Of a stretch of DNA of 64,000 nt, positions 14,602 to 50,800 are shown one piece after another. Numbering within the stretch: the stretch's first letter is position 1; each line of letters starts with the position of its first letter. A program made the translations under genes and the position numbers. Origin of the DNA: Paraspadella gotoi (taxonomy: Eukaryota > Animalia > Chaetognatha); assembly GCA_051294375.1 (NCBI GenBank), contig CM119267.1:23251486-23315485 (forward strand). The letters run 5' to 3'. The notes below the pieces were generated by a model. It ran no database searches. It was not told where the DNA came from and saw nothing but the letters and a program-made list of their open reading frames with translations.

Positions 14602-15286
14602 GAGAAATCTGTGTTCATCACCCAAAAGTGTGATCCGGAAAATCCCGCAATTTAATCGGAAACGAAAAAATGACAATCTTACGCTGTGATTGGTCGCTCC
14701 CGCTGCCTTCTGTCTTTCCCGCCTTCCTTTCCCCCCCTTTTTTAATCGGTTCCTATGTCTGCGGATTAATTTGCCGAATATAAAACTCCGGCTTGAAATT
14801 ATTAATGTTTCTCACTCCAATGATACTCCTTTTATTTAATCTATTTTTAAATAAAAAAAACCTCTCTAGCTCAATTTCGATTTAGTACGACTAAATGCAG
14901 ATAATTTAAACATTAACGAAGAAATGCGTTTTTTTTTGCCCATTCCTTCCATTCCGTCGTCATTGAACGATTATTAGTGTAGTAGCTTTCGTTAAATTTT
15001 ATTGCCCAAAGATTACCGTGATTCTTGAGAGACGGAGAAAGATTCCCTTGATTGTTCTCGTTCTTTCTGGATCTTTAAAACGTGATGTCTAAATCGGCCG
15101 CCTACTCGACTTTGTCCCTCATACTTGCCTTCTTGCCTTCCAGAGACAAAGATATTCCCTATCAGTGGGAATAAAGACTCTTACGAAAACGAACTTAACC
15201 GAACGAGCCACTCCTAATCAAATCCCTCAAACTTCGACGTTCATTTTTATCCTTTTCGCGTCGCTACCATTCTCACCGCCGCCAAT

Positions 15287-29513: not shown

Positions 29514-32500
29514 ATGAATTTCGAAGAAACGGAAACGATTTTTTCCAAGGTGAGGCTCGTTGCCTGTTTCTAACGCACTATAAGAATAGGAGCTTAGTAG
29601 GGTGGATGACGGAAAATATCACTGGGCCTTGCTACCGAGCCAGAACGACTATACCAGGATTTATGCAAACTCTATATTGGCCCCCCTAATTGTCGCCTTG
29701 TTTTGAAATTGGTACAACCAATGTAAAATTACCCATTTATTTAATAAACAAGCTATTTTGCCACTTACTTTGGACAGACTATGGTGGATTTAGACCTCGG
29801 TCCTGCGGTGACTCAAAAATAATTGGTAAAACCAATACTAGGGGATTGCTAATTTTAGCTACATGAAGTATCTTCAATCCGTTTTTGTTGTCTTAATAGC
29901 TGCTACTACTCATCTTAAGATGACCCATGAATTTTCCAACTGATTGCTCTACATTTGCAAAAGTTATGCTAAAAAATGTAAAATTTTGCTATTTATTTTA
30001 GCACTGACAACTTAAGGTTTTTTGACTTGCTCATGTCAGAATGCGACGTTATTTTGTCTATATTATGAACAAATTATGATAATATATGGCAAAGTTGCAT
30101 TTTTGTTAGTGATGTATAGTTTGTGTTTGAAGTTTCAGCTCCCCATCTTGCCCCGCCCTTCTTCCCAACTTACCACATATATGGGGTAAGATGGGGAGTT
30201 TGACCAGTTTTTAAAAAAAATTCAATACTTTAATACGGTTTACAATTAATTAATGAAACTCATAAAATAATTACACAAGACATAGGTCTATACATGTAAT
30301 AAAAATAAAAATGTTTTTAAGAAAAATAGAAAAATAGCTTAACATCACATTGTAGTGACTTTACTTGATGAGATTTTTGGTAAAAATTATCAAGAGTTGT
30401 TTAATGCGTGAAAGGCAAATATATTATGATCGAAGATCATCAACAAAAAAAGGAAACATAAAAACAAAACAGTAAAAAAGGTTACAATGGTCATAAGCAT
30501 AACAATAGAGAAAATCATGAAAGGGTAAACGAGATTACAAGGTCAGGTTTAACTGACCACTAAACGGTTAAGTGGTCGTTTGGTGAACGAGTTGTAAAGT
30601 TGTTGTTGTTGTTGTGGTTGTTGTTTAGACCGCTAAAACATTCTTACCACATCTTCCCCAATAAAAACATGCAAGAACTGTTTTTGGATGTGCTGTCTGT
30701 TCTGTTTTCATTCATTAAATCGGCATTCCAGGTAAAAGAGGCGTTGAAGAAAGAGTTGGAGACTCTCCACTGGCGCGTCTTCATCGCCGAGCGGAACCGA
30801 ATCGTCATCGAAAAGGACAAAATCGGAGGCGCCGTCGTCGTCAAGACGGAGGTCTCCTTCGAAGCCTTCGCCGACGGAGGCGGAGATGGCGATCCCAAGT
30901 GAGTTGCAAGAGAGGGTGGCAGATTTGTTGTTATTTAACATTTATTCCATTTTCTGAAATTGGTAATATTCTGAAAATTCTGAAATTCTGAAATTCGCAA
31001 TATTCTAATGTTACCCCATCAGATCCTTTCTCCCCATCTCCCTCGCTCGAGTTTCGCTCCCCAAGGAGGAACCCTCGTATGATTCCGACTCTTCGCCGGC
31101 GTCCCCAAAGCTTCCCGTCGCGGCGCCGATGACGTCGGAGATGCTCCACCAGATCGTCAAGGAGATCGACGCCGAGTACGAGATCACCGACGCGGACGAC
31201 GTCGGCGACGCGGCGGAACGTAGCGCCGATGCCCTCCTTGCCGCAGCCGGCTCGGTTGACCCTTTCGCCGCCGCGTCGTCCTCTACTAACGGAAGCCGTC
31301 CTCGCCGCCAGAAACGGCATCCGTGCGACCTCTGCGATGAGGCCTTCACCTCTAAAGTCAAACTCAAACAGCACTTTAAAGAGACGCACCCTCATGTGCG
31401 GCCGAGCGGGAGAGTTCGAGAAGTTCGTCTTAAGTGCCCGGTGTGCTCGGAGATGTTCGCAGATACTCAGCAATACCTTTTTCATCGAGAGGTGAAGACA
31501 AACTGATACTTAATATGAAAATATAGGGAAAAAAATATAAGAAAATTAACATTTCCAGGTACACAAACTGTCGCGACCTCCGGAGACTTTCAAGTGTCCC
31601 TTATGTGATAAATCTTTCCTCTCCTTTGAAACTCTTAATCGACATCAGTCGACTCACCAGAATCCCGCCAAGAAGCCTCCCTCCACGGAACCGGAAGAGG
31701 GCGAGCTGGAGGACGGCGAGTTAGTGGGCGTCGACGTCGTGAACTCTTCGTGCGATGTCGAGGAAGGTGGAAGCGGGGAGTCCGCGGACGCGTCCAGTGC
31801 GGGGGACGCAGTGGGCGTGGAAGGCACGGAAGGACAGAACGTGGTCTTGGAAACTCTCACCCCGCAGACGTACCTTTGTTTACAAAAAGAAGAACCACAC
31901 GACGTGGTCGTCGCCGTCGAGTCGGCGTCGATCGTTGTCAACCCCGAACAATCTCGTCGCGGGCGAAGGAGAAAGTCCGACGACGACAAATGGCTCTATC
32001 CCTGCAGAGTTTGCGGGAAGGTGTTCTCGACACCGGGGAATCGAAGTAGACACACCGCCGCCACTCATAGGGGTGAGAGAATCGTAAATTGGGGTGATGG
32101 CGTGGTTGCAACTCAACGATAAGTTCTCATTTCTTTTAACGAAGGTCGCAAGTTTACCTGCAAGCTTTGCGGAAAACTTCTTTCCGGCGATCTCAAGACG
32201 CACATGGACTCGGTTCATCTCAAGAAAAAGAAGATTTGCGAACTTTGCGGAAAAGGATTCAGCAATCACTCCAATCTCAGGATGCATTACAAGACGCGGC
32301 ATTCTTACATACCTTATTTGTGTAAAAGGTAGGCTGGCGCTGGCAATAATTGAGGGAGGAAAATACTCAAGTTTTAATATTTTGTCGTAAGGGAAAATTT
32401 TAGGAAATCTTTACTTCCAGATGCGGTAAGGAATTTTCGAGTTCGCAAGAGTTGAGCGACCACAAGTCGACGGCACACAAAGAGAGAATGCAGCGCGTCA

Positions 32501-33763
32501 AATGTCCCCACTGTCAGCAGGACTTGGCCAAGGGAAGGCTCAAGTGTCACATCGACGTCGTTCATCGGAACATCAGATTCAAGTGAGTGAAAAGGGAATT
32601 CCAGAGCTCTTTATTCCTCAATCTTTTTCTGGTTCGATAATTGGTGGACAAAAAAAAATTAAAGGTTGATGTTATGTAATTTTATGAGCATTCATTCTGA
32701 CAAGTTTCAAATTGAATGGTTTTTGGTCTTTGCTTGCCATGAGGAAAATAAAGAAAAACCTTTTAATGAGTTAATTTATTAAGAAGGTCACAATATTTTG
32801 AGGGCTTCTGCCTTTGATGAAGTCAGAAGCCTTTGAAATAAATTAACTCATTAAAATATTTTTCTTTATTTTCCTCATGGCAAGCAAAGACCAAAAACCA
32901 TTCATTTTGAAAAAGGTTGAGGTCTTGGGATTTTATATTTTTCCTCCTGAGCCTTGGCTCTATTTTAATATCATACGTACTATGCATAGATTATCCTTAC
33001 CCTCATTCCCTTTTCCCCTTCCTTTTAAACGCCACTCAGATGCCTCCTGTGCCCAAAAGAATTCACACAAAAGAAGCGCCTTCGGTCTCACATCGACTCC
33101 TTCCATGAAAAGATTAAACTTCCGTGCGATTACTGCGGGAAACAGTTCTCGCGGCTCGAGTATCTCAAATCTCACGTGATGGGGTCTCACGGCAAAGAAT
33201 TTTGGCCGCCCGTCGGTGGTAACGTCGAGGCCGTGGCGGCGCTGGAGGCTGCCGAAGACGACTTATCCGGCATCCTTGACGAGTCATTGCAGGCGAGGCA
33301 TCCGAAGGAAGGATTTTTTTCTTTCTTTTCAGAAAACCCCCCCGGCCTAAAAATTGGTTTTGTTCTTCTTCGATAGCTTTCGACGCTGGGCACAAGCCGA
33401 ATAAAAATCGACCCCTCCGATCTTCCCGACTCAACGCCCGACTCCGCGGTAGACTATCCCACCGACTCCCCCGTTAGCGGCGACTCTGCCCTCAACTCGC
33501 TAAACATCGCCCTTCCAGACTCCGAACGTCCTTCCGCTCCTCTACTGCACCAAATTTCTTCTCAAGATGGCAACATCTTGGTGACGCCGCTTGAGCAGAC
33601 GACGACGACGAACCCGTTGACTTACCCTTTGCCGAAATTCGAGGAAGACGATGGTGGTGACCTCAATCGGATAGAGTCGACGCCGCAGTTCGCCATCGCA
33701 GAGTCGGAATCTGGGCAAAAGACGGTTCTTATCGACCTTGTCACCGGAACCATCATACTTTGA
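29514..33763 (+). CDS. C2H2 zinc-finger protein (10 fingers)
   Basis: Exons 29514-29549, 30732-30898, 31023-31491, 31559-32072, 32145-32328, 32421-32582, 33040-33292, 33377-33763. Ten CxxC...H...H units. The last intron is GC-AG. Confidence 0.88.
30139..30198. repeat. Short inverted repeat, probably MITE remnant
   Basis: CTCCCCATCTTGCCCC (30139-30154) vs GGGGTAAGATGGGGAG (30183-30198), 15/16 complementary. Confidence 0.55.
32705..32912. mobile_element. Fold-back MITE-like element in zinc-finger intron
   Basis: About 80-bp near-perfect inverted arms (TTTCAAATTGAATGGTTTTTGGTCTTTGCTTGCCATGAGG... and its complement) with an inner GGCTTCTG/CAGAAGCC stem. Confidence 0.8.
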
Positions 33764-34428
33764 AAGTTTAGTTTATTTAGATTGGTTTTTTGTGCCCTCA
33801 AGCGACATCTTTTTTGTTTAGCTTCTAACTTAATTTTAATTGTGCATAATCAATTGTTATCGCTGTTTGCGAGGATGTTACCTCTTTTCCAGAGTGGTTT
33901 GTGACTCAATCATGTTCGCAATTATTATTTTTTTGTTACATTTTGGCACTCGAGCGAAAATTTATTCATAGACATAAAACAAAGACGAAAAACTTGAAAA
34001 TTGTTTTTTTCTTTCGTTTTTTTTCAGCTTTTAGTGTTTATACTTTAGAAGTAGAGACCGTGAATGATTTTTTGTAAAGTGCTAAAATTTCTCTAATTAC
34101 AAAGTCAGCTAGTCTCATTTACGTTTTGATTGATAAGAAAATCACATTCATTCCGAAGAGGCATAGATTTTTTCTTTCCAATTTCGGCTGTGTTATGAAT
34201 CTCTCGTGTTTTTTCACTGTTATCTTTCAACGCTCTGTCGCTTCTCTTTTTCAGCTTTCCACGATTCAATCTCTTTTCACTGTCGACTTTTAAAAATATG
34301 CGCATGATATCACCTTTCGCCACCGACTTATTTTCATTTCCTTTTATTACACTTTTAAACTTATCGCACTCATTTCATCTAAACTCCTCTCAAGTAACTC
34401 TTGAGCGGGGATCGCTCATTAAATCGCG

Positions 34429-37110
34429 ATGTTTCCCCGTTTCGTTTTCCTTCCTTTTAAACACAAACGCAATCTAATCCTTTCACTCATTTTCCTCGTC
34501 TCCTCCTACTTTTTCGTCCTTTTCATTTTCAAGAGGCCAAACTCGTCCAGCCCCATCTCCTCGGCCGCCTTCTCCATCCCCGTCGATGAGCCCACCCTCT
34601 CGCCCCTCGCTTCCTCCCCAGCCAATGTCCCGTCATCCTCCTCTTCCCCGCCATCACATCCTTGCGGCGCCCCGTCCCCCTGCGCGACTCCCCTCCTCCC
34701 TTTTCGTATCGCCACTGGACATGGCGCCAAACGTGGACCGGAAATCTGCGTTGACGGCGTCGACTTTATTTCTCCGGAAAAGCGCAACTTTGGTCGAGGC
34801 CTTAACGTCCTCGTTCTCGATCATCGATTCCGATTTGGAAACAAAAAATCCAATTCCGATCATAACAACAGCAACATCACCGTTAACCACAGCATAGCGA
34901 TCAGAGTATTCGATACTTACCTCGAATCCTCTACTCTCCTCCGCTTCCTCAAGTACGAAGCCACTCCCGAATCCGTCCTCATCTTCGCCTCTTTCGACGA
35001 AGCTTCCCAAGCGCTGGACGAAGATGTCAAACGCTGGCTCTCTCTCTACGGCGCCGCAGCGATCGAGCGCCTCTCCTTTCGCGGCACTTACCTTTTCGTC
35101 GGACAACGTGGCCTCTCGCCGGATAAATCTGTCGAGGCGGTGCGAAACCCTCGTAATCGCGACCGCTTTGCCCGCCAACTGGTCGTTCACGGCTGCCTAA
35201 AGATTCCCATGGGGCCACTGAAATTCGTACCGCTTCCGCCGCCGAGAGTGATTCACGGTGACGCGGTAAACTTTGGCGCAGCGCCGGCGAATTGCGGCGC
35301 CCATCGCGGTGGCTGTGGAAACGACCACTTTAGCCTGTCCGTGTACAGCGGACGCGACATGAGGGACGAACCGCGGGTCTGCATCGACGGGCGAGGGGTC
35401 ATGGCCAAGGGGCTTAACTCGGCAGGACGCGGGCTAAACCTAGTCGTGGTCAAACGCTCTGCTGAGGGCTTAGCGCGTGTGATACGCTTAGCTCGTTTTG
35501 ATACTTATGCGGAGGATTCCTCCGAACTGGAGTTGTTCTTGGAATCGCTCGTCGAGGGAGAGATCTTAGTGGCCGTGACTTTTGATGACGCCTCACGGAA
35601 ACTCTCCGACGCGGCGCGAGTGCTGCTCAACGAACTTGGAGCCGGAAACTCTCAAAACATCGGCCACCGAGACGCATGGTACTTTGTGGGTCAAAAGGGA
35701 ATCAAAGGTTTCACCCTATTCGAAGAGCTGCTTTTTTCCAGCCCGAGCGGGCGACATCCGCCCCCCATCGACCGCGCCCTTTGCTCTCCGTTTCGCTTGC
35801 CGTCTCGACCCGTAGTGCCGGATCCGACGCCCGCCGATTTCCGGCGTCGGCGGAACTTTTGCGCCGTTCATGCCGGATACGAATCCGAATTATGCGATCC
35901 TCGCCGGCTCGACGAAGCCGTCCCTACTCCACCACCGATCGATAATCCAACATTGTTTCGACATCCAATTTTTTTTGTGCCGATTTTTGTCTTCGCGGCA
36001 GATTCGCCCCAATGCCTACAACGCACTATCGCGACGCTGATGACTCAATCCGGTCTGCGATCAGAAATGGTTATAGTCATGACGCCCAAAAGACGAGAAG
36101 ACGAGATCGTCCCTTTGGCGCGAGTCTACGGCCTTCGGGTGGAGACGTTCGAAGACGACGACGCCGAAGCGGACGATCCGGCGTCGTCGCTTATGCGGCG
36201 CGGGGTCGACCGGGGATTCCGCGAATTTACGGCGGCGAAGTTGGCCTTTGTGTTGGAGGCCGGGGCGATTCTTTCTCCCGACTTCCTTTACTTCGCTTCT
36301 CAACTCTCGACGACGTTCGAGAGCGACGAGTCTCTCGTCGCACTTTCCGCTTGGAATCCTAACGGTTACGAGACGCCAAGCCTCGTCGGCGACCCCTCTC
36401 TCATTCATCGAGGCTCCGGCGCTCCCGGCGTCGCTTTTCTCCTCAAACGTCGATTTTGGGAAGACGAGGTGATCGAGGATTGGAAGCGTTGTTGCGCCGG
36501 GCGTCGCACGTGGCGGGGTTGGGCATTGAGCGGCGCCGCGGCGTCGAAGGAAATGGTTTTCCCCGACGTTTCTCGAGTTTTCTTGGAGCCGTTCTCTACA
36601 AAGGACGCCGCCCTCAATGAAAAGCCTCTGAGACGTAAGCGAAGGACGAACAGGATCCCGGTTACGAAGCCGAGCGACACCGAGGCTGTGGAAGCAGTCG
36701 AGTACGAGCGGCGACTGGAAAAGGATTTTGCCAATGCCGAATTTCTTGACGGACGATCGGAGGGACTTAAAATGTGCGCGGATTCGGCGGCTAACGAATC
36801 TTTAGTCTCCGAATCGCCAAACTTTCCGGCGCCGAACTTTGCCAAATCGGCGTCGAAGCGATTCGTTATTCCGGCATCGCAGTCTTTCGTCGACGACCAT
36901 CGCTCTCTCCGATGCCTCGCCCGCTGCTTCGGTATTTTGGTCGACGAGGACCTGCCCATTCTCGGACTTCACAATGGGGGAGTTTTGCGGATCAGTTTCA
37001 GAGGAAAGAGGGTGATGATTGTGTTGGTGGGATTTGCGAGTAGGTACGGAATTTACATGAAAGAAGGTGTTAAACCTTTTGAGTTGCGAAATTCGGGAAA
37101 ACGAAGCTGA
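34429..37110 (+). CDS. POMGNT1-like type II membrane protein: two ILEI/FAM3 domains plus GT13-like domain
   Basis: Intronless 893-aa ORF with an N-terminal TM. Two repeats of P.IC.DG...GRGLN.......FDTY....FD(E/D)AS..L...L..RD.WYFVGQ.G, then SPDF.YF and LSAWNPNGY. The DxD site reads EAG. Confidence 0.88.
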   Translation: MFPRFVFLPFKHKRNLILSLIFLVSSYFFVLFIFKRPNSSSPISSAAFSIPVDEPTLSPLASSPANVPSSSSSPPSHPCGAPSPCATPLLPFRIATGHGAKRGPEICVDGVDFISPEKRNFGRGLNVLVLDHRFRFGNKKSNSDHNNSNITVNHSIAIRVFDTYLESSTLLRFLKYEATPESVLIFASFDEASQALDEDVKRWLSLYGAAAIERLSFRGTYLFVGQRGLSPDKSVEAVRNPRNRDRFARQLVVHGCLKIPMGPLKFVPLPPPRVIHGDAVNFGAAPANCGAHRGGCGNDHFSLSVYSGRDMRDEPRVCIDGRGVMAKGLNSAGRGLNLVVVKRSAEGLARVIRLARFDTYAEDSSELELFLESLVEGEILVAVTFDDASRKLSDAARVLLNELGAGNSQNIGHRDAWYFVGQKGIKGFTLFEELLFSSPSGRHPPPIDRALCSPFRLPSRPVVPDPTPADFRRRRNFCAVHAGYESELCDPRRLDEAVPTPPPIDNPTLFRHPIFFVPIFVFAADSPQCLQRTIATLMTQSGLRSEMVIVMTPKRREDEIVPLARVYGLRVETFEDDDAEADDPASSLMRRGVDRGFREFTAAKLAFVLEAGAILSPDFLYFASQLSTTFESDESLVALSAWNPNGYETPSLVGDPSLIHRGSGAPGVAFLLKRRFWEDEVIEDWKRCCAGRRTWRGWALSGAAASKEMVFPDVSRVFLEPFSTKDAALNEKPLRRKRRTNRIPVTKPSDTEAVEAVEYERRLEKDFANAEFLDGRSEGLKMCADSAANESLVSESPNFPAPNFAKSASKRFVIPASQSFVDDHRSLRCLARCFGILVDEDLPILGLHNGGVLRISFRGKRVMIVLVGFASRYGIYMKEGVKPFELRNSGKRS

Positions 37111-37698
37111 TGGTGAACTAGCAATGAAGAATTTTACTCAAGTCACAACACTTCTTTGTTGAATTTTGCGCGGAAAATTACAACGATTGTAAAGATTTCA
37201 TATATTAATCGAAATAATTCAACTGACAAACACTGTCAGTACTATTTTTTGAAACCTTTGGATATGAACTCGTAGCCCTCATTGTCAGGAAGACGCCAGT
37301 CCTTCAAATTGATCTCATTTAAATATTTTGCCACGTTGTTTAAAAAATTATATTATTTATTTATTTATTATACTCAATAGGCAATGTTATGTTCAATTTA
37401 TCGAACATTTTAGGAGTCAGGAATGGGTCGGCCTTAACTTTGGCGATCTTAAAAGGTATTTGATCTTGGGTCGCAATCGGATCTGGATGGTGATATGGTC
37501 GGCGAGATGTCAGATCGAAACACATTTGATATGAGCATTGAATATCGTGTTCTCATTTCGAAGATCAAATTTTTTGAAACCAGCATGAGTGCCAAAAATG
37601 TTTTAAAAATAAGATAAAAAAAAGAAAGATTTGAGGAATGCTTTTTCGCGATACAAGGTTCGCCGAGGTCATGTCGCCGCTCGACATCACTTTCCTCG

Positions 37699-39750
37699 AT
37701 GCTGTATCCGTCTCCGGCGGAAGTGGAGAGACTCCTCGTCCTCTTCCCGGATCCGGAGGCGAGGATTCTCTCCTTCGTCGGACCCCACGCCGCCGTCCAC
37801 GCCGCCTCCTTGCCACGAGTCCGCCTCGAGGCCAAAACCGGCGGCCGACGCTTTAGGTGCGGTATCGATTTAGGTAAGCGATAAAAATGGGCGTGGTCGG
37901 ACCTGCCGGAAATAATCTAGTGTATAAAAAAAATATGAAAGGTGCTTATTACACGGTCACGCATTCGTTAAATACGAAAAGATTTGTTTTCTGGATATTT
38001 AATAGTATGTGAAATAAAAATCTGTCACGATCGATTATATGAAAGTTTCTGTGTATTTAATGTATGTATTATCAATTCTGATATTTGTTTTCAAACCGCG
38101 CCGCTCAGCTTGGCCTTTCGCCTTCACTTCCACCGCCACCGCCACCGAACCCGACTCCGCCCGTCGGAACGCCTTTCTCGCCGCTTGCAAGACTCTGTCG
38201 CAATTGGGGCTGTTGGACGCCAGAAAGGACGCCGAAGCGGAACGGCGTCGCTTCAAGCGGGCGCTCACTCACGATCTCTATCGCGCCGGGTGGCACCGGG
38301 CTCGGAAAGTAGGTTTTATTTAGTAATGTATATTATATATATATTATAAAAAAAACTTTCCTATAAAGGTTAGCGTAGACATCCAGTCGTCGTTAGAATC
38401 CCCTTCGTCAGCCGCTGCTTCAATCGCTCCCCCGCCCTTCGATAGGGAGTTTGCAGAATTCGTCGCCGACGCGGCAGCGCAGCGCGCGTGCCGAGGCGGT
38501 GTTTGGCGATGCAAGATTAAACTGGACTGGCCTAAACGAGTCGCTGTGGAGGCCGAGGGACTAACTCAGGTTTCTTGACTTTTATTCGAAGATAAACTAG
38601 TCGAAATAAAATAGCGGAGGTTGGAATTTTTAGTAAGAAAATAATTGATTTCAGTAATATCTTCTTTTTATTTTCTCCCAACAAGTCCGATGCTGAACGC
38701 AACGCCTCTGTCATGGCCTGCCTGGACCTCCGCATAAACCGCGCCTTTGACGCTTCTCTCCGGTTAGAATCTTTCAAGAGGCTTCGTAAACGCAGCGCCG
38801 CCCGCCACGTGCACGCCGCTTTGCCCCCGAAGCGGCCCGACTTTCTTCTCTGGACTGACGCCAGCGAGCGTGGCTATGGAGCTTACTATTGCCGCGCCGA
38901 TGCCGGCACCGCCCCCGCCGGCGAGCGGACCTGGTTATACCAACCCTGGCCCCACGCCATCGCCGAGTCGTATCTGGACGACGTGACTCACATCCTCGAA
39001 TTCTACGCCACCGTCTCCGCGATCTACACATGGGCGCGCCTTTTCCGAAGGGCATCGGTGCTTGTGCATTCTGACTCTTCCTCCGTCGTCCAGTACGTGA
39101 GGGAGGGAATCCCTGCTGCGGGAGGTGGAGGCGGAGGCGGAGAGGCGGGGCTGCGGTACGTGGATCGAGGCGGAAACGAGGGACTGAGCGACGAAGTTTT
39201 CGTCATGCATCTCCACTCGTTTCTGTGAGTTTTGAAGGAAAGAGATGGTTGGAGGTTTATCTTTGTTTTAATGAGCAATATTTACTGAGGAGAGCTGACC
39301 TCGGTCCTTCATCGGTGGCTTATAGTTTGTTCGGATATGATTTCTTATGGCCTGCAGTAATCGCTAATAAAAATGGATCAAATTTAAAAGTTTACAAAAA
39401 ATCATGCCAGAATGGTTTGTGATCGTTTTGTTTTAAGTACAAAGTTTTTTTTTGAACTTATCTATTTTCACATTACATTAATATCAAAATATTCTCCCCT
39501 GTACAATGTACATACCCGCATTGTACACATCCGCAGCTACAAAACCAAGTGCGCCTTCGACATCGGGTTGGACGCGGTGCATGTGAATCGTGAGGAGAAC
39601 CGATGCGCGGACTCCCTCGCCCGGCTTGAGCCCGAGGAGTTTCGGTTGATGGAGGGCCGTCGATCTATCTTGTCCAAACGCGCCAAGCAACTATTGTTCT
39701 TGCCCGTCTTTCAAATGTTTTCCCCCTTTGCCCAGACTTGTACCAGTTGA
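37699..39750 (+). CDS. Two DHX30-like dsRNA-binding domains fused to DIRS/Ty3-type RNase H (about 440 aa)
   Basis: Exons 37699-37873, 38109-38308, 38369-38569, 38686-39224 and 39537-39750 join in frame with GT-AG ends. Repeats FRCGIDLAWP...ARRNAFLAACKTLSQLGLLD and WRCKIKLDWP...EAEGLTQSDAERNASVMACLDL. RNase H motifs LWTDAS..GYGA, ILEFYA, VHSDS, AVHV..EEN.CADSLAR. The start codon is uncertain. Confidence 0.8.
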
Positions 39751-39820
39751 AGAATTTATTTATTTTTCTACTCATTCTTGATTGTTTTTCTGATGTTTTT
39801 ATTTTCAGGCAATTAAAAAA

Positions 39821-42300
39821 ATGAGTTATCCGCCGTACGGAGGAGGAGGATATCCCCCGGCTCCTGGGGGCTATCCGCCTCAGCCAGGATATCCGGGACA
39901 ACCTCAGGGAATGCCTCAACCCGGTGAGTTGGTGAAGATTAAATTAAATTGTTTCGCAACGAAACTTTCTGCTTTTCATTAGGCTATCCGCCTCAACCCG
40001 GTTACCCACCCCAAATGGGAGGTGGCGGCGGGGGCATCGGCTTCGAAGCAACCGCGACGGGTGGTGCCCCTCAGCACGGAGGCTATCCTCCGGCCGCGGG
40101 GGGATATCAGCCTGCGCCTGCAGGTTCTCCCTACGGACAGCCCCAACCTGGCGGCTACGGAGCTCCCCAACCGGGCTTCGGAGGGCCACCTCAACCAGGT
40201 TACGGGGCGCCGCCCCAACAACCGCCCTACGGTGCTCCGCCTCAGCAACCTGGTTACGGAGGTCCGCAACCAGGCTACGGAGCGCCGCCGCAACAACCCG
40301 GTTACGGTGCTCAACCTCAGTACGGCGGAGCGGCGGGAGGTATAAAAACAAGACGCTTAGTATTCTTTTTTACTTTTTATTATCAACTGGACCCATCATA
40401 TATTTAACATGTTTTCTATCTATTTGTCAGGCTATGGTCAACCCCAGCCTCCATACGGCGGTGGCGGCGGACCCGCTTATCCGTCCGCCCAGCCAGGTCC
40501 GCCCAACCCTCCTGCGCAAGCCTACCCGGGAGCCCAACAGCAACCCGTACCGCCGCCTCAGAGTAGCCTCTACCCGTCGGGTTTGGGTGCCGCGGCGCCT
40601 GCGTCGTCTCCCAAGCCGTCGCCGCGCTCGTCCCCGGCGCCGACCCCGCGGGCGCCAACTTTCCAGGGCACCGTCCGCACCGACCCGCGCCTCAACGCCC
40701 AGAACGAGGCAGAGGTTGGTCTTAGGACAGGAGAAATGTATTGTATCGGATCTGTCGTAAATAAAAAAAAGATTGTGAGGGTGCATGGTGATTGGTGAAC
40801 TGGTGATTAATTATGTCTATATTCAAAACAGGTGCTCCGCAAGGCCATGAAGGGATTCGGCACAGACGAGAAAGCCATTATCTCTGTCCTCGCGCGTCTC
40901 TCCAACGCGGATAGACAAAAGGTCGCCATCGCCTTCAAGCAGATGTACGGCAAGGATCTCATCTCTGACCTCAAGTCCGAACTTGGCGGAAAACTGGAGA
41001 AAGTAGGAGATTTTAATGGGGTTTTTTACTCCAGTTTTATTTTATTTTCTTATTGATTATTATGTAAATATTTATTCACCATTCTCTAAATTTCAGGTGG
41101 TCCTCGCCCTCCTAACACCGACCTCGTTCTATGACGCCCGTGAGTTGCGCGCCGCCATGAGGGGCCTCGGGACGGACGAGGCCTGCCTCATCGAGATTCT
41201 CGCCTCTCGCACCAACGAGCAAATCCACGCCATCAAGTCCGCCTATAAGACGGAGATGAAGCGCGACCTGGAGGCCGACATCATGAGCGAGACGTCGGGC
41301 CACTTCAAGCGTCTGTTGGTGTCTCTGTGCACGGGCGGGCGGGACGAGACTTCGTCGCCGGATCGGGCCAGGGCGCAGGTTTGTTTTAACGATGATGTAT
41401 GTTCAATTTGTCGACACCATTTGGTTAAAATCATTTACAATTGTTGACAAACAGGCGGACGCTAAGCTCCTGTACCAGGCGGGTGCCGGACGCCTGGGAA
41501 CCGACGAGTCCTCCTTTAACCGCGTCATCTGCGCCCAGAGCATGGCACAGCTTCAACTGGTCTTCGATGAATACCACAGGGCCATGGGCAAAAGCATCGA
41601 GCAGGCCATCAAAAGCGAAATGTCTGGGGATCTGGAATCGGGATTCTTGGCCGTCGTCCAGTGCATGAAGGATCGTCCGGAGTACTTTGCCACTCGACTT
41701 TATAAATCCATGAAGGTGAGTTGCTTTGTCCCTTTTTTGTTTTTTAGATTATAAGATTAAGGGATTTGTCAATGGCCCAGGTTATTGCGCAATTATTGCT
41801 TTATTCTTGCTTCGCCATTGCATAATATTTTTACGTATTTTTATTGTTTCCTAGTTTTTCATATAAGCAATTCGGTAGTCGTCATTTGGTTTCAAGTTCT
41901 ATTTTTTTGATTGGTAGGCATGTGTATGTATGTGATTTATTATCATTCGATTCGTTGTGTTTGATCGAAATAGTAAACGAAAACAAATTTTTGTCGTTGT
42001 TGTCGCCCAAAAATTTTGTTATGAACGTTTTTCGTTTCAGGGCGCGGGAACGGACGATCGGACATTGATCAGAGTCGTCGTTTCTCGTTGCGAGGTGGAC
42101 ATGGTGCAGATTAAGGAGGCCTTCCAGAGAAAATACGGAAAGTCTCTCATACAGGTGAGAAAAATCTAGGTCCCCGTTGCATTTTCGTGTATTAATCCTA
42201 AATATATAAAATTATATTTTACATTGCATTTTCTCATTAGTTCATAAAGGACGATTGCTCGGGCGACTACGAAAGAATCCTGGTGGCCCTTGTCAGCTAA
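39821..42300 (+). CDS. Annexin with long GYP/Q-rich N-terminus (ANXA7/A11-like)
   Basis: Exons 39821-39923, 39983-40339, 40431-40714, 40832-41002, 41097-41378, 41455-41715, 42041-42154, 42241-42300. Four repeats: [30 protein letters not shown]. Confidence 0.96.
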
Positions 42301-43345
42301 ACATTGTTGCGTCTCTCGGTGACGACTCTTTAAGCGCGCGAATAACATCTCTAGTCATTAGCCAATCGTCTTGTCCGTAACTAAAACGAAACGGATGATG
42401 CAAAAGAGACAAACTGAAACAAAATAAAACAAACTTTACTCAAAAATTATTGAGCTTTTTTCTTATTTTAGCTTGGTGGAGCAGGTTTTTTTTCCCCCTT
42501 TTTTGGATGTACAGCTTGAAGTATCAAGTTTGCATGCGACATTTGTAATTTTCTTCGAGATTTTACTTTATCAATCTTGACGCTGTTGAGGAACATTTAA
42601 AATAGTTTTTCCCAGAAAAGGCAGTATATACTTATAGAAAAAAATGTAGCCTTTCGAATCATTTTTAACAATTGCGCTTATTTTCTAATACTTGCAGCTT
42701 TTGTCCTGTGATTCCTGTATTCAATTTTTAGAAACTAGGAATTTATTTGAAAACAGTGTTTTTGCACTGTATCTTTACAGCAAGTAACCAAATATATACA
42801 AACTATAAACCGTATATAGCGTCAAAACCTCCGTTATCTATTTTTCAAAAAAATTTCGTCTCATTTGTTAGATTTGTCTACGCTACTTCGTCAGTATTTA
42901 AAAAATATATTTTCATGTTATCTTCATTAATGTTTTAACTTCGTATTTTTTTCGACAATCAAATACGTGTTTCCCTTTGTTGTGCTTTCTTTCAATCATG
43001 GAGTTAAATTTTCATGGCCATTTTTTATTTGAAAATGTCCTTAGTATACGCTAAAAATACAAACAAGTGGAATCCCTCAGGTTTTTCATTTATGTAGCAG
43101 ATTGATATTTAACGAACGTATTTCTGGTTTATGTATGGAGCTAGTTAAATAGATTGGCATTAAAACATAAGTAAATTGGCTACTGTTAATTGTTCGTCCA
43201 AAGTCAGAAGCTACCAACTGACTGACGAAGGACCCCACTTATATTTTTCTTTGTTTAATATTCGCTTCTTTTCGTTTTAAGGTCATTTAAATTAACAAGA
43301 CTAATTATTCACTGTCACATCGTGATTCACTTTTTCCAAATAAAA

Positions 43346-44806
43346 ATGGCGGACGACGATTGGGCGAAAGCCGTTGATTCCCAAGAGTTCAAACTGACGG
43401 ACATCGCGGCCTCCCTTCCCGCAACGACCCTTCCCGCCAAAGCCTCGCCGGCGCCCGTCGCCGCGCCGAAGAAAGCATCGCCCGACGCGTCCGAATGGGA
43501 CGAGGCGGAGCCTGAGCCCGACGCCGGCGAGCTCTCTCTCCTCAACAAGAAAGTTCGGACGAAACTTCATCAACTGAAGGGCGACTCGGTGGAGATCCAG
43601 CGTAAGGATCCCAACTCTCCTCTCTACTCTGTCAAGACCTTCGAGGACATGCATCTCAAGCCCGAGATCCTTAAAGGGATCTTTGCTATGGGCTTCAATC
43701 ATCCCTCGAAGATTCAGGAGACGGCCATCCCGTCGCTGCTCGCCGATCCGCCCATCAACATGATCGCCCAGTCTCAATCCGGGACGGGAAAAACGGCCGC
43801 CTTCTCCGTCACCATTCTGAGCAGGGTCGACAACGCCGTCCAATACCCGCAGGCCTTGCTTCTCTCGCCGACCTACGAGTTGGCCTTGCAGACGGGAAAG
43901 GTCATCGAGGAGATGGCCAAGTACTATCCCAATCTAAAGATCGCCTACGCCGTTCGCGGCAATATGCAGCCGCGCGGCACGAAGCTCACGCATCAAATCG
44001 TCATCGGGACGCCGGGAACCACACTGGATTGGGCCTTGAAGTTCAAGCATTTCGACATGAAGAAGATAAAGGTCTTCGTCTTGGACGAGGCTGACGTCAT
44101 GATCGACACTCAGGGTCATCACGATCAATCCATCCGTCTTCACCGCATGTTGCCAAAGACAGGCTGTCAACAGTTGCTCTTTAGCGCCACCTATTCGCCG
44201 GAAGTGATCACCTTCGCGGAAAAGGTCGTCGATAATCCCCTCATCATCCGTCTTCGTCGCGAGGAGGAGAGCTTGGACAATATCCGTCAGTACTACATCA
44301 AGTGCAATGACAGCAATCAAAAGTACAATGCTATCGCCAACATTTACGGCACCATCACCATCGGGCAAGCCATCATCTTTTGCCACACTAAAAAGTCGGC
44401 CAAGTGGTTGGCTACCAAGCTGACCGAGGACGGCCACCGCGTGGCCCTGCTCAGCGGCGAGCTGGACATCGAGCAACGTGCGGCGGTGATCAACCGATTC
44501 CGCTTGGGTAACGAGAAGATCCTCATCACGACCAACGTCTCGGCTCGCGGGATCGACGTGGCCCAAGTCACCGTCGTCATCAACTACGATCTCCCGATCG
44601 TCCACGAGACGAAGCGAGTCGACTTCGAGACCTACCTTCACCGCATCGGGCGCACGGGCCGCTTCGGCAAGCGCGGCCTCGCCATCAACATGATCGATAG
44701 TCACAAGAGCATGGACGATCTCCAGAGGATCGTGGAACATTTCGGAAAGAAGATCGAACTCTTGGACGCCGAAGACGTCGACGAGCTCGAGAAGTTGGAG
44801 CAGTAG
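43346..44806 (+). CDS. DDX19: DEAD-box mRNA-export helicase DDX19/Dbp5
   Basis: Intronless. DPNSPLYSVKTFE, AQSQSGTGKTAAF, PTYELA, DEAD, SAT, HRIGRTGRFG. Confidence 0.96.
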   Translation: MADDDWAKAVDSQEFKLTDIAASLPATTLPAKASPAPVAAPKKASPDASEWDEAEPEPDAGELSLLNKKVRTKLHQLKGDSVEIQRKDPNSPLYSVKTFEDMHLKPEILKGIFAMGFNHPSKIQETAIPSLLADPPINMIAQSQSGTGKTAAFSVTILSRVDNAVQYPQALLLSPTYELALQTGKVIEEMAKYYPNLKIAYAVRGNMQPRGTKLTHQIVIGTPGTTLDWALKFKHFDMKKIKVFVLDEADVMIDTQGHHDQSIRLHRMLPKTGCQQLLFSATYSPEVITFAEKVVDNPLIIRLRREEESLDNIRQYYIKCNDSNQKYNAIANIYGTITIGQAIIFCHTKKSAKWLATKLTEDGHRVALLSGELDIEQRAAVINRFRLGNEKILITTNVSARGIDVAQVTVVINYDLPIVHETKRVDFETYLHRIGRTGRFGKRGLAINMIDSHKSMDDLQRIVEHFGKKIELLDAEDVDELEKLEQ

Positions 44807-45029
44807 TCGGTTTCGGCAGTCGGAACNNNNNNNNNNTTTTTTTTTTTCACGTATTGATAGGACCACAATTTCGTTTTGGATGATAAAAAAAAATCCAATT
44901 TATGTTTACCGCTTCCTCGGTGTCTTATTATTCGTTGTTAAAATAATAAGTAGTTTTGTCCATTTTTCAGGAGAAAAAACTACTCAAACGAGAAAACAAA
45001 AGACAAAAAAAACCAAAAAAAGAAAGAAA

Positions 45030-46667
45030 ATGAATCGTAAATCGTTCAGTCCGGTCCTGCTCGGACTCGATTCATCTTTTCGACTGACCAAGTTTTCGGA
45101 TCTCAAAGGATGATTGTCCAAACTCCCTCGGGAGTTTCTCTTCAAACTCCTAGAGGGACTGGACGCGGCCAGCGATGAGTCCGACGAGCTTTCTCGGGAG
45201 GCGCCGGCTTCTCGCCCGCGATCCCGCGACCGTGGACTCGATTGCTGCGTCACCAAATTGCGATACGGCGGACTCTTGCTCATCCAGACCACCGACTTCT
45301 TTTATCCGCTCATCGACGATCCATACGTTCAGGGTGAGTTCGAATCAAAATGTGAAGCAATTGCGTTTCAGAAATAATAATATAAGAGAATAACAATATA
45401 TTATGGCAACAGAGGGACATGTGCGATGCCTGGGGTGTGAGGCATCTCCCGACAGCTGGCGCTCAGGGCTTTGGACCTGCAGTGACCACCCCATGTCACT
45501 GGCGTGTTTATGCCGACACCATCACACTTTAACCAGCGTGACCGTGAGGGGATTGAACCCGGAACTCACGGTTGGTGAACGAGTACTTAGCTGTCCAAGC
45601 CAATGGGACGAGCTGAGTTTCACCAAGCTATACGGGAGGCGAATTTGGGATTCACCACAATATCTAGTTTTGCTCATTAAAAAAAATGATTTAATTAGAA
45701 CTTGTCGAGACCCATCTAGTCTTCCATCAGTCACTCATCGATCTCTATTCAGGTCGCATCGCCTGCGCCAACGTTCTCTCCGATCTCTATTCCGTCGGCC
45801 TCCAGACGATCGACCACGTGGGTCTCTTGTGCAGCATCCCTCTCCGCATGACAGAGAAGGAGCGCGACGCCGTCTTGACGGAACTCTTGCGCGGTTTCGT
45901 CCACTGCGCGACAGAGGCCGGTGCTGAAGTCCAGGGCGGCCAAATGATCAACAATCCCTGGCTCTCGCTGGGCGGGATGGCGTCTACGATCGCTCGGCGC
46001 GGAGAACTCGTTCCGCCAAACGGCGCCGTCGCCGGCGACGTCCTAGTCCTGACCAAACCGTTGGGCACCCTGGTGGCTCTCAACACTTATCTCTGGCTGG
46101 ACAGAATGAAGGACCGACTCTCCCGCGTCAAAACTGTCATTAGCGACGACGAGATCGTCAAGGCTTACGAACGCGCCGTCGAGTCGATGCTTCGACTAAA
46201 CAAAATCGCCGCCGGTCTCATGCACAAGTACCATGCCCACGCCGCTACCGACGTCTCGGGCTACGGCCTTTTGGGCCACGCCAAGAATCTCGCCAAAGGT
46301 TAAGACGGATTTAGTTCTTGGGGCATGTTAAATTCAATGATCCTCATTGAACTCTTTATTTATTTTAGTTCAAAAGAACGAAGTCTCGTTGGTTATTCAC
46401 AATCTGCCGGTATTTGCCAAGATGGCCGCCGTGTCGCGCGCTTGCGGCAACCAGTTCGGCCTGACACTTGGCACCGCGGCGGAGTCGAGCGGCGGTCTGC
46501 TCATCGCCATAGGAAGAGAAGACGCTGCGGCTTTTTGCAAAGAGATCGAGAAGGTGGAAGGGCAACCCGCGTGGATCGTGGGAATCGTGGAAAGAGGAGA
46601 TCGAACGGCGAGACTCATCGACAAACCAAGGATCATCGATATTCCGATGAAGGAAGAGTCGAGATAA
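45030..46667 (+). CDS. SEPHS2: Selenophosphate synthetase, Sec-containing (SPS2 type)
   Basis: Exons 45030-45333, 45753-46298, 46369-46667. [13 protein letters not shown](45111-45113)-LSK at the Sec position, [55 protein letters not shown] in the 3' UTR. Confidence 0.93.
45120..45137 (+). promoter_or_regulatory. SRE-like hairpin downstream of Sec codon
   Basis: AAACTCC-CTCG-GGAGTTT, a 7-bp stem starting 6 nt after the UGA. Confidence 0.5.
45405..45660 (-). mobile_element. tRNA-related SINE-like insertion in SPS2 intron 1
   Basis: GC-rich block in an AT-rich intron, with minus-strand B box GGTTCAATCCC (45559-45549) inside an ACCGTGAG/CTCACGGT stem. Confidence 0.5.
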
Positions 46668-46822
46668 CCGAAAAAAAAAAGACTTTATTAAAAATTATGG
46701 TCACGATGACTCGATTGTCCATGCAGTAAGCTTCTTCCAAAGATTTTTTTTGTTTTATTAGTTATATTTTTTGTTATTTGTATATTTTCGTTCGTACTTT
46801 TTATTATTTCGAATTGTTCGTA

Positions 46823-46892
46823 GCCGATTCCCATGACGTTTTTCGAGGAAAGCCTCTCGGCCCTCGGACGAACCGACGACTTTTGAATCGGC
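46823..46892 (+). promoter_or_regulatory. Type II SECIS element
   Basis: Helix I GCCGATTC/GAATCGGC, core ATGA (46833) with GA (46875), 11-bp helix II, apical AAA (46849-46851), mini-stem GCC-TCTC-GGC. Confidence 0.9.
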
Positions 46893-46981
46893 GCGATCTT
46901 TTCCAGTTCGTTTGACCTTTTGATATTAACATTTTTTTTTCTTTCGTAGGTCACAGTTACAATATCATAATATTATATCCG

Positions 46982-47629
46982 ATGTCATTTCCTTTTTTAC
47001 GCCTCGATGAAGACGAAAACGAGCGTAGCGAATCGAGCGATTCGCCGACCAAGCGCCCGTGTCGAACTTGCACCGACTTTCAATCTTGGATGAAGACCAA
47101 CCGCGCCGCCGCTCGACGCAGAGTTTCTCGCCCGTCCTCCAAAGCCGACAATTCCCCGATCGGCGGGGATCCGTCCGGCGATCCCGACCGACCGGACGAG
47201 CGCAACCGATCGGACAACAACAATCCCGATCCCGCTTTCGTCTACACGGCGGCGGACCTCGACGATTTCCAGCTCGACAGTCCCGGCGCCAATTGCCCGC
47301 TCGATCGGACGGAACTGGGCAAGAACACCTGGTCCTTTCTCCACACCATGGCGGCCTATTATCCCGACAAACCCAGCGAAGAAACGCAGAAGGACATGAA
47401 GGATTTCATTCGTTTATTCTCCAAATTCTTTCCCTGCGAAGATTGCGCCAAAGACTTGAGGAGCGAGATCGCCGTCTTGACTCCCGACGCGTCGAGTCGA
47501 ACCTCGCTGTCCGACTGGTTTTGCAGACTGCACAACATCGTCAACGTGAAATTGGGAAAACCAGAGTTCGACTGCTCCCGCGTGGAAGAGAGATGGAGGG
47601 ACGGATGGAAGGACGGAACGTGCGACTGA
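46982..47629 (+). CDS. GFER: FAD-linked sulfhydryl oxidase ERV1/ALR
   Basis: Intronless. PCRTCTDF shuttle motif, [54 protein letters not shown]. Confidence 0.97.
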
Positions 47630-47848
47630 ATCCGATACATTCCCTCATTTGTTAAGCTTTTGCAATCTAGTCTGGACCCTTCGATTATATTTCTATCTTC
47701 CTCTTTCTTCGTTGCGACTTTAAAAAAAATATATATATTTTTCGTTTTAGGGAATTATTTTTTCGACTCGGATATATATCGAAATAAGTAATACGCAATT
47801 TACTCATACTAATAATATAAATAATATTTTTCGCATTCACCGTTCGAG

Positions 47849-50800
47849 ATGGCCGGCGTCGGCGGATCCACATTCGTCGAAATCCCTTCGCGTTTCGTGA
47901 CTTCGCGACGACAAAAACAAATGAATGTTGCCTCGGGCGGCGTCGGCAAAGTCGAAACCAAACGGTTGGCCGACTCTGCAGGCGGTTACGCCTACCGCAG
48001 CCTTTCCGCGGCGGCCAATGAAGGACGCTCCCTCGTCACGCAGAATCGCTACGTCCATTGGAAAGTTTCCGGATGTAACTTGGAGTTGAGCGAGGAATCT
48101 CTGGACGCCGATGTGGTGCTGGGTGACCTGAAGGTCGGATTCGCTGNNNNNNNNNNNNNTTGAGCGAGGAATCTCTGGACGCTGATGTTGTGCTGGGTGA
48201 CCTGAAGGTCGGATTCGCTGACGCCCCGATCCTTGGCGACGGCGTTTCAGTGGTGGAGACGGCGTCGACGTTGACCTTCCTCGTAGCGACAGTAGCCAGC
48301 GTTCATCGCCTCGATTTTCCCCACCCGTCCTGCCTCGGCATCGTCGACTCTTTCGTGGCCAACCCGCCTGGCAGCATCGACGCTAGACCGACGCTGCGTT
48401 CAGTCTTCGCCAACGCGACGCCGCCGGGCAAAGACGCCGCCTACTTGCACACCCTCGTCAACGCCAATCAATTGATTTGCGCCGCATCATGGCTTTCGTC
48501 CGACGATCAGGTTAAAGCCGAAAAATCTCTTTCTCGCCAGGCGATCGCCTGTTATTTCTTCTAAAAGCTAATCTCTCTCCAGGCTGTTTTCGCTCTGGGC
48601 ACCACGTCCTCCTCCATCTTGTTGATAATTCTCCCTCCGCCCGGGTCTCACTCCGAGGTGACCCAGATAGAATTAAAGCAATCAACGACCATCTCCCGGT
48701 TCTGGACGGGTCTGGTGCCGTCGGTCATTCGAGGCGGCGATGCCAAAGAAGATTCGGGGCTGCGATCCTTGAGACTTGTCATCCATCCGCTGGGCAATCA
48801 GTGCTTCGTCATCGCCGTCTGCCAGGATCACAAGTGAAGTCTTTATTAATTAATGAATTTCTTTTTATTTTCGTCGTCCTATTTTCCTCTCTTCGCTTCT
48901 CCCAGACTCCGCCTGTGGTCAGCCGAAACGGAGGAATGCGTACTCGTCACCGATTTGCTCTCCTTCGTTCCCGGTGACAAGGACCTAAGTTGCGCCCGAA
49001 AGCCGCTCATGAAAAAGTCTTGCGGCCCCATGCCCTCTTCGGTCTTCGTCGCCGTTTATTTGAGGTTCAAACTCCACGCTCAATTCCTGGTTTTTCAACC
49101 GGAAGCGGGAGCCAGCGGTCACGTGTTGCATCACGTGGCGACGTTGCATTGTCCTTCGTGGGATTTGATCGACTTTGCTCTGAGCAGCCACGCCATCTGG
49201 ATGGTGGCAACGACGCCGGAGGGGGAAACCGTCGTCAAATACGCGCTCATTAACGGGTGAGAGTTGAACGATCGATCAGATTTCATGAAATGGAGAAAGA
49301 TTTTTCAATCCGTCCTCCCGCAGCGATGTTCCCGAAGCCGGCGTCGACGATTGGCACTCGGTGGAACTGGCTTCGTTTCCCCTTCAATGCCTCGACATTA
49401 CCACTCATCGAGAACCCAGAGAAGTTTATCTTCAAACCCTCTTCGCCCCCGAACATTTTTGCCCAGCGACGCTCATGAAAGGTAGAAGTGGCCCCAAAGG
49501 AAAGGGAATGAAAAATTTGTCCGTTTTGCTTTTGTTTTGAACCTTCGATAATCATGCAACTCTTCTTCATCTCTCCCCGATGCTGCGCACTCAACAGCCA
49601 TTAAAATCTACCGCAAGTCCCCGTTGGACTCGACCATGACCGGAGTCGGCGCCGCCACGGTCGCCTCTCTCCGCGACGAGGTGGTTGCCGTCGTCGAAAA
49701 CGAGATCCACGCCTCCGCTGCCGACTACGAACTCGCCGAGGACGAGTACCGCGACCTACAGCTTCAGTGCTGGGCTCGCTTCTATTCACAGTGGTTGCAG
49801 TACCAGGAGGCCGTGGCGGAGCCGCTGGCCATCTTCGCCGACGGGGTGTCGGGCTTGGTCGGTCTAATTCGTAAAAATCGCCTCTCGCTACTCCGCCGGC
49901 TCGACGACGTTGACCGCCTGTCGCTCGTTTCCAAAACAACCACCCTGGACGATCTCTTCGCGTTGTCGGCGTCAGGGGCCGTCGATGATCGCGACTTGGT
50001 CACCTTCGCCCGCGCGCTCGCCCTTATTGACGAAGCCGTCTTTCCCGACGTCGCCGAAAACTTTATCAACGAGCTTTTCCTTTTGGAGTCGCCGCATACC
50101 ATCACTGACAAGATTTTGGTGAGAGAAGGGTTGGATATGGATTTCGGAATTTTACGATCAGTTGGTTTCATTTTTGATTATTGTATAACCAAGTCGAATT
50201 TAATATTTATTACAAAAACTCATTATAAAATATATCTTCGTTTCAGATGGAGTCTATTCTCCCCGAGTCGTCTCTCGGCGGCGGGGATTCCCCCACCCCG
50301 GCCGATGGCTACTACATCCTCTCCGCCGTGGGTGCCGTCCGCGATCTTCCCGCCGTCGCCGATTTCATCCTCAATCTGCTCGACTTCGCCAAAGGGGATC
50401 CAGAGAATCTCAGTATCAACGATATCGATCCAGGTTCGTAAGAAGCTGTGTTTGGGCGAGATTTGTGTGGGATCTTTGTGAGATTTGTGAGATTTTTCTA
50501 AGATTTTGTGTGAGATTTTTATTTTCTGACAGTGATTTCTCTTCAAAGCGAAATTCCATATATTTTTTTCCTTCCGCAGCCGAAGCTTTCGAGACGCCCT
50601 TTGGGCGATTTTTCTGCGGAGGTAGAGGAGTCTCTACTCTCGTGGCAAGCCTCAAGCATTTGGTCGGAACCCGACTCCGACTACTTCGAAACATCCTGCT
50701 GCTTTTACAGGCGAGATTTCAATCAATAACCGATCCGATTTTAACTCAATCGCTCACCCTCTTCTCTTTACTCTCTCCACTCTCCAGGTTGCCATCCGGA

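Follow-up and report, generated by a model that had tools for sequence, protein, structure and literature searches.

Inspection of the window (the whole 64,000-nucleotide, 64-kb stretch of Paraspadella gotoi DNA that was analysed) revealed a gene at 37699-39750, flanked upstream by an ILEI/GNT-I glycosyltransferase gene and downstream by an annexin gene (~39820-41750), that joins dsRBD repeats to an RNase H. The borders of all five exons are GT-AG and the spliced open frame encodes 442 residues, in agreement with the first-pass annotation, which had proposed five exons spliced in frame into about 440 residues. The features of the locus are the following:

37389..37455, + strand: predicted extra first exon, which with the acceptor 37657/37658 adds 36 residues (5 basic, 0 acidic)
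37658..37698, + strand: in-frame Ser/Arg-rich codons upstream of the ATG at 37699, probably coding
37699..37873, + strand: exon 1, start of dsRBD repeat 1 (first helix, strands 1 and 2)
38109..38308, + strand: exon 2, remainder of repeat 1 (strand 3, last helix) and first helix of repeat 2
38369..38569, + strand: exon 3, strands of repeat 2
38686..39224, + strand: exon 4, which completes repeat 2 (last helix) and continues through the linker into the RNase H (D250, E297 and D322)
39537..39750, + strand: exon 5, end of the RNase H (R390, N393, D397), conserved basic tail and stop
38857, 38998, 39073 and 39610, + strand: catalytic acids D250, E297, D322 and D397, respectively
39589 and 39598, + strand: R390 and N393, in exon 5 before D397

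The surrounding region is intron-rich and also holds long single-ORF genes at 34429-37110 (ILEI + GNT-I, presumably POMGNT1-like), 43346-44806 (a DEAD-box helicase, presumably DDX19-like) and 56366-58135 (a sodium:solute symporter). A second annexin gene lies at 58621-59692, and its protein is 51-70% identical to that of the annexin gene at ~39820-41750. At 12640-17486, a CDK-type kinase gene directly adjoins a cyclin gene with an RS-rich tail, a pair that we take to be a CDK9-like kinase and a cyclin L-like cyclin. An inverted repeat at 32705-32912, with 83-nt arms that are 93% complementary and a 42-nt loop, is MITE-like and occurs singly in the window.

The exons have a GC content of 55-65%, compared to 15-34% for the introns (with the ends of the first and last introns set 1-2 bases off), and the GC3 of the spliced gene is 0.70. 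When a profile built only from 12 named mollusc proteins was compared with the 1,228 six-frame ORFs of the window, the five exon ORFs occupied ranks 1-5, with E values of 2e-18, 5e-9, 1e-6, 0.003 and 0.12 (exon 1 alone is weak), and the spliced product scored E 2.7e-53. Since this mollusc-only profile ranks the exon frames first and scores the spliced product, homology supports the splice model. The alignment to the closest relative, the unnamed P0001 (an uninterrupted 627-aa ORF, 36% identical over the whole length, E 2e-88), is gap-free over all four junctions. One sequencing run, which we guess to be RNA, contains 0.56 of the words of 37500-41500, and the exons in 38359-39752 have no contig in three runs, which weighs neither for nor against the joins. 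We regard the gene as real. The fusion itself is independent of splicing, because exon 4 alone encodes both the final helix of repeat 2 and three of the four catalytic acids (D250, E297 and D322). The four acids lie exactly at the positions that had been assigned to the D/E/D/D series from the letters. With Pfam, exon 4 matches RT_RNaseH at E 0.038 (14.6 bits, under the cut-off) and exon 2 weakly matches Dicer_dimer (E 0.011); matches of exon ORFs to Toxin_20 and HRI2_3H were dismissed as chance.

Comparison of the family profile with the PDB gave a sole match under E 0.06, to the dsRBD of KIAA0890 (2DB2, E 3.4e-10), a protein that we take to be DHX30. The match falls on repeat 1, and a larger profile found the same structure at E 2.4e-8. 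Using 33 alignment rows, AlphaFold2 generated a model of the Littorina member P0038, standing in for the spliced protein of the window, with a mean pLDDT of 85.6 and a pTM of 0.58, in which two alpha-beta-beta-beta-alpha units are followed by a five-strand RNase H fold. Searches with this model returned dsRBDs at Z ~10 in VIA, mostly over repeat 1, with type B dsRBDs among the top, tied matches; Foldseek retrieved tandem-dsRBD proteins, 2DB2 and the Ty3 RT at E < 1e-3. Repeat 2 is assigned from the model and from its relationship to repeat 1: scored with a repeat-1 profile, 15 of the 16 repeat-2 segments exceed the best of 320 shuffles, so the two repeats are homologous. Both the duplication of the N-terminal motif and its DHX30-like dsRBD fold, as read in the first-pass annotation, are thus borne out. 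In the Atlas, the repeats give dsRBD-clan leads, all under 0.9, and a homodimer prediction for the tandem repeats, run with the alignment unused, scored 0.00, from which we draw no conclusion on dimerisation. DHX30 is described as having two dsRBDs at its N-terminus (PMC8140440), so the inheritance of both repeats as a block would be the simplest origin.

The same repeats had been termed duplex-RNA-binding modules, of which the fold is retained and the RNA binding is questionable. With the register set by the 2DB2 alignment, no row has two basic residues at the three lysine positions of region 3 (0/15 rows for repeat 1 and 0/16 for repeat 2). Domains without these lysines are described as protein-binding modules unable to bind dsRNA (PMC5716075), and duplex-RNA binding by the repeats appears doubtful. 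Some non-canonical RNA binding may still occur, because 2DB2, where a Lys-Lys pair is seen, itself keeps only part of the motif.

In the RNase H domain, the D, E and D are invariant in 33/33 rows, and the Asn and last Asp in all 32 rows holding that part (row 33 of alignment A2, which is exon 4 alone, was dropped from the counts of the last Arg, Asn and Asp, where its letters are an artefact). Seven residues ahead of the last Asp lies an arginine, R390, found in 31/32 rows and in each of the 16 longer ones. Its counterpart in the alignment is the Arg of Sulfolobus tokodaii RNase HI, to which the stretch preceding the last helix can be aligned directly. Compared with cellular RNases H, the His loop is shorter, and the profile is gapped against that of Chlorobium RNase H. 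Of the AVHV..EENRCADSLAR series proposed at first, the final acid (D397 at 39610) holds, and the His in AVHV does not correspond to the catalytic one. Pfam matches among the 33 rows are to RT_RNaseH (29, with E up to 0.05), RVT_3 (14) and cellular RNase_H (5), and the NCBIfam family RNAseHI_Thmprot matches 5/33; the curated cut-off is passed by 7/23 proteins for RT_RNaseH and 0/23 for RVT_3. On the strength of these RT_RNaseH matches, the domain is of retroelement type by sequence, as previously suggested, and all four acids are invariant where present.

At the level of structure, VIA matched the RNase H fold with a best Z of 13.1 (rmsd 3.3, 124 aligned), the top three being the RNases H of Halobacterium, LC11 and Sulfolobus (Z 13.1, 12.3 and 12.3), with human RNase H1 (2QK9) at Z 10.7; in Foldseek, the Ty3 RT was found at E 3.2e-4. 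The mean pairwise identity is 41% for the RNase H and 48% for the basic tail, compared with 35% and 23% for the repeats. The net charge of the RNase H is -5 in the window protein, -3 in P0001 and +3 to +12 in the other rows. A glycine run (39121-39150) occupies an RNase H loop, where inserts are longer in P0001 and P0002 and short in molluscs. In the Atlas, exon 4 matches unnamed clusters at 0.93-0.96, one of which has RT_RNaseH on 14% of its members; a single-sequence fold of exon 4 (pLDDT 34.6) was set aside. We consider it quite probable that the nuclease is active.

Searching 1.84 billion representatives with exon 4 yielded 23 proteins, of which 21 align as one family and two, P0018 and P0022, are outliers outside it; a profile search added members, with 18 matches among 7,773 candidates. 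Full-length homologues come from 13 named mollusc species and from unnamed records, so the gene is more than a one-off, a point for which the first-pass annotation had proposed an orthologue search. The species are eight gastropods (Patella caerulea, P. vulgata, Gigantopelta, Haliotis, Littorina, Batillaria, Nucella and Babylonia) and five bivalves (Mercenaria, Dreissena, Potamilus, Mytilus and Pinctada). Named members are labelled hypothetical or uncharacterized, or carry the UniRef automatic name RNase H domain protein. One locus was found per named species in these searches, which do not count copies. No longer fused form turned up in word-index searches covering 1,912 and 5,196 candidates. 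This negative carries little weight, and the searches likewise missed DHX30 itself. The combination of two dsRBDs and an RNase H is almost certainly the true architecture of the family.

In the tree of 17 full-length rows, the distinction between gastropods and bivalves requires one change, and none of 500 shuffles gave a value as low, although the gastropod-bivalve branch is weak (support 38/85; present in 52% of bootstrap trees). The well-supported groups, namely the two limpets, Nucella with Babylonia, and Potamilus with Mercenaria and Dreissena, agree with host relationships as we understand them. The tree of the RNase H alone needs two changes per class, and in it the window protein, P0001 and P0002 fall outside the clade that contains the molluscs (support 98), a placement subject to a long-branch warning. 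All eight genomic-looking fragments cease to align at one particular Val within the RNase H, as expected for read-through into an intron, which points to a shared intron near the fourth intron of the window gene. Among the unnamed fragments P0003-P0009 and P0013, 6/8 form a subgroup of their own and may mark further animal lineages. Conservation over gastropods and bivalves and the host-like tree favour the earlier view of a host gene rather than an element, and we consider it very probable that the gene is domesticated.

The position of the start codon bears on where the protein would act. The context of the ATG at 37699 is weak, with a pyrimidine at -3, and out-of-frame ATGs precede it at 37638 and 37671. 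It is overlapped by an ORF in another frame (37638-37856), which is 72 codons long and has two ATGs. Over 37658..37698 the GC content rises, and the tblastn match to P0001 begins at 37663; the true start is probably upstream of 37699. The donor of the predicted extra exon has the best score among 31 in-frame open single-intron models, tied with its own pairing to another acceptor, and the predicted 36-residue addition resembles a mitochondrial presequence.

Among the homologues, an N-terminal extension of 24-103 residues was measured in 10/16 rows, with basic exceeding acidic residues in all 10 (the extension of P0035 being excluded from this count), and it is absent or short in 5/16. A strict presequence rule applied to the first 40 residues is passed by 4/16 rows, two of them the near-identical limpets, versus 7% of internal 40-mers, so the signal is only moderate; the hydrophobic moments of the rows with extensions are modest (0.29-0.47). 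Isoforms both with and without the extension are annotated in Mercenaria, in parallel with human DHX30, for which a mitochondrial isoform produced by an alternative first exon, and isoforms with and without the signal, are described (PMC8430983). These basic, acid-poor extensions, together with the predicted upstream exon, were overlooked in the first-pass annotation; they hint at mitochondrial import, and we lean slightly towards the existence of a mitochondrial isoform.

The reading that we tentatively prefer, with somewhat less than even confidence, is that of an old domesticated RNase H with an address and docking module from DHX30 and a mitochondrial long isoform, cutting hybrids. The presequence would import the protein into mitochondria, where the lysine-less dsRBDs would attach the nuclease not to bare dsRNA but to a partner protein or an RNP. 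The duplex would be gripped by R390 and the basic C-terminal tail, catalysis would proceed through two metals bound by the four acids, and in RNA:DNA hybrids, for instance replication primers or R-loops, the RNA strand would be cut. Counting against this reading are the small number of rows that pass the presequence rule, the rows that lack an extension, the weak gastropod-bivalve branch and the net acidic RNase H of the window protein and P0001. RNA:DNA hybrids are, in our judgement, the fairly probable main substrate. They would fit either compartment, because human DHX30 is reported to resolve nuclear R-loops, and to have cytoplasmic and nuclear pools too (bioRxiv 10.64898/2026.10.25.761626).

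Alternatively, the same domesticated gene might have a nuclear or cytoplasmic role, with R-loops or replication intermediates of retroelements as its targets. This is a serious if rather unlikely possibility, with which the 5/16 rows and the one isoform without an extension agree, as do the DHX30 pools and R-loop resolution just mentioned (bioRxiv 10.64898/2026.10.25.761626) and the reported occurrence of DIRS1-like elements in molluscs (PMC3266345). The extensions of 10/16 rows, basic and poor in acids, speak against it, and no tested result links the protein to transposon control.

Another variant retains the gene and changes the substrate, the nuclease cutting double-stranded or structured RNA instead of hybrids, such as sense-antisense RNA duplexes in mitochondria or precursors of rRNA within RNA granules. 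R390 aligns with the Arg of the Sulfolobus tokodaii enzyme, the one RNase H reported to cleave dsRNA (PMC9719913), the attached domains have dsRBD folds, and DHX30 is described as a mitochondrial protein (PMC8430983; bioRxiv 10.64898/2026.10.25.761626). However, the region-3 lysines are lost, the activity is described as a single case among RNases H (PMC9719913), and no result here ties the Arg to dsRNA cleavage, so that we judge this substrate quite unlikely. It is unlikely as well, to a slightly smaller degree, that the family is a second mitochondrial RNase H, of molluscs and at least one other animal lineage, which regained an archaeal-style Arg and cuts both hybrids and mitochondrial dsRNA.

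As for the origin of the hybrid-cutting enzyme that we prefer, the 5' end of DHX30, with the targeting peptide and both dsRBDs, would have been copied and fused to a retrotransposon RNase H before the split of gastropods and bivalves. The nuclease, presumably resembling that of DIRS elements, would then have gained R390 by convergence, which we prefer over an archaeal-type donor. A donor of the latter kind (aRNH), cellular or non-LTR rather than a DIRS or LTR element, would alter the origin only and seems distinctly improbable. Its appeal lies in the top three VIA matches, in RVT_3 (14/33 rows) and RNAseHI_Thmprot (5/33), and in the catalytic Arg itself, which archaeal-type RNases H carry at that site, where LTR-element enzymes are described as having no conserved residue and are assumed to be weaker (PMC5348765, PMC4408406). 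Against such a donor, RT_RNaseH prevails in 29/33 rows and passes its cut-off in 7/23 proteins, compared to 0/23 for RVT_3. By a motif presumed typical of that group, the outliers P0018 and P0022 may also be DIRS-group RNases H. Furthermore, we know of no solved structure of a DIRS RNase H, so the structural ranking by VIA may be biased.

That the gene is a mobile element, or the relic of one, that captured DHX30 domains is scarcely credible: the RNase H is of retroelement type and capture of host domains by retrotransposons is on record (PMC6673714, PMC5890265), but the gene has four introns and a host-like tree, no Pfam match to RT, integrase, recombinase or gag was found at E 1e-4 among the 100 window ORFs of at least 118 aa, no terminal repeats, inverted or split direct, surround the gene (only short, low-complexity or 73-86% identical pairs occur in 30000-48000), and no second copy was found within the 64-kb window. 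The ORFs and repeats checked uphold the first-pass statement that RT, gag, tyrosine recombinase and terminal repeats are missing nearby, and scans of metagenome, viral and plasmid contigs yielded no loci, those of DIRS-type RNases H included.

The family shares features with several known systems. With DHX30 it has in common two N-terminal dsRBDs, the first matching 2DB2 (E 3.4e-10), but an RNase H stands in place of the helicase, winged-helix and OB domains, the Lys-Lys pair of 2DB2 is lost in the repeats, and neither the 442-aa protein nor any full-length homologue has a DEAH helicase core. Eukaryotic RNase H1 consists of an N-terminal accessory module plus a nuclease, a layout shared by the family together with the type-1 fold and four acids. 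The family differs from it by two dsRBD folds, an active-site Arg rather than His and a retroelement-type sequence; the hybrid-binding domain of RNase H1 was found by Pfam in 0/33 rows, and the P0038 model has dsRBD folds there. Mammals have domesticated genes derived from retroelements (PMC3670739), which likewise are host genes that grew out of part of a retrotransposon; NYNRIN/CGIN1 and RTL1 are examples. Compared to these, the present invertebrate family keeps the RNase H only, its active site intact, and joins it to the front part of a host helicase.

Similarity to the RNases H of DIRS-order and Ty3/gypsy elements is evident in the RT_RNaseH matches (29/33 rows) and in the Foldseek match to the Ty3 RT (E 3.2e-4). 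DIRS elements are described as defined by RT, gag, recombinase, methyltransferase and inverted repeats (PMC3266345), all of which the family lacks, and it has introns. Moreover, its conserved Arg lies where the RNases H of LTR elements are described as having no conserved residue (PMC5348765). The D-E-D-R-D site and the top structural matches are shared with archaeal-type RNases H (Sulfolobus tokodaii RNase HI and the aRNH of plant Tat and oomycete elements), whereas the N-terminal half of the family RNase H scores as LTR type, in an animal gene fused to dsRBD folds. Like the type B dsRBDs (domain 3 of TRBP/PACT/Loqs and dsRBD5 of Staufen), the repeats have the fold without the region-3 lysines by which that type is defined (PMC5716075), but by sequence they derive from DHX30. 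The family thus appears closest in layout to RNase H1, an accessory module plus an RNase H, yet would be a full member of none of RNase H1, DHX30 and DIRS elements. In line with the first-pass view that the architecture is undescribed, no published description was found by architecture or locus identifiers in a literature consisting mostly of open-access papers. Taken together, the gene likely encodes a previously undescribed RNase H, possibly working in mitochondria.

Animals are generally regarded as having two RNase H enzymes, H1 and H2, of which H1 serves mitochondria. If the proposed reading is true, the family would be a third animal RNase H, independently built, with all catalytic residues kept across gastropods and bivalves; RNase H1 is reported to be required for mtDNA replication in mice (PMC9719913). 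It would also be a case in which a domesticated retroelement enzyme stayed an enzyme and borrowed the address of a host helicase. An upgrade of retroelement RNases H by an active-site Arg has been proposed for plant and oomycete elements (PMC4408406, PMC5348765), and the family would offer a test case of whether this Arg alone upgrades such an enzyme.
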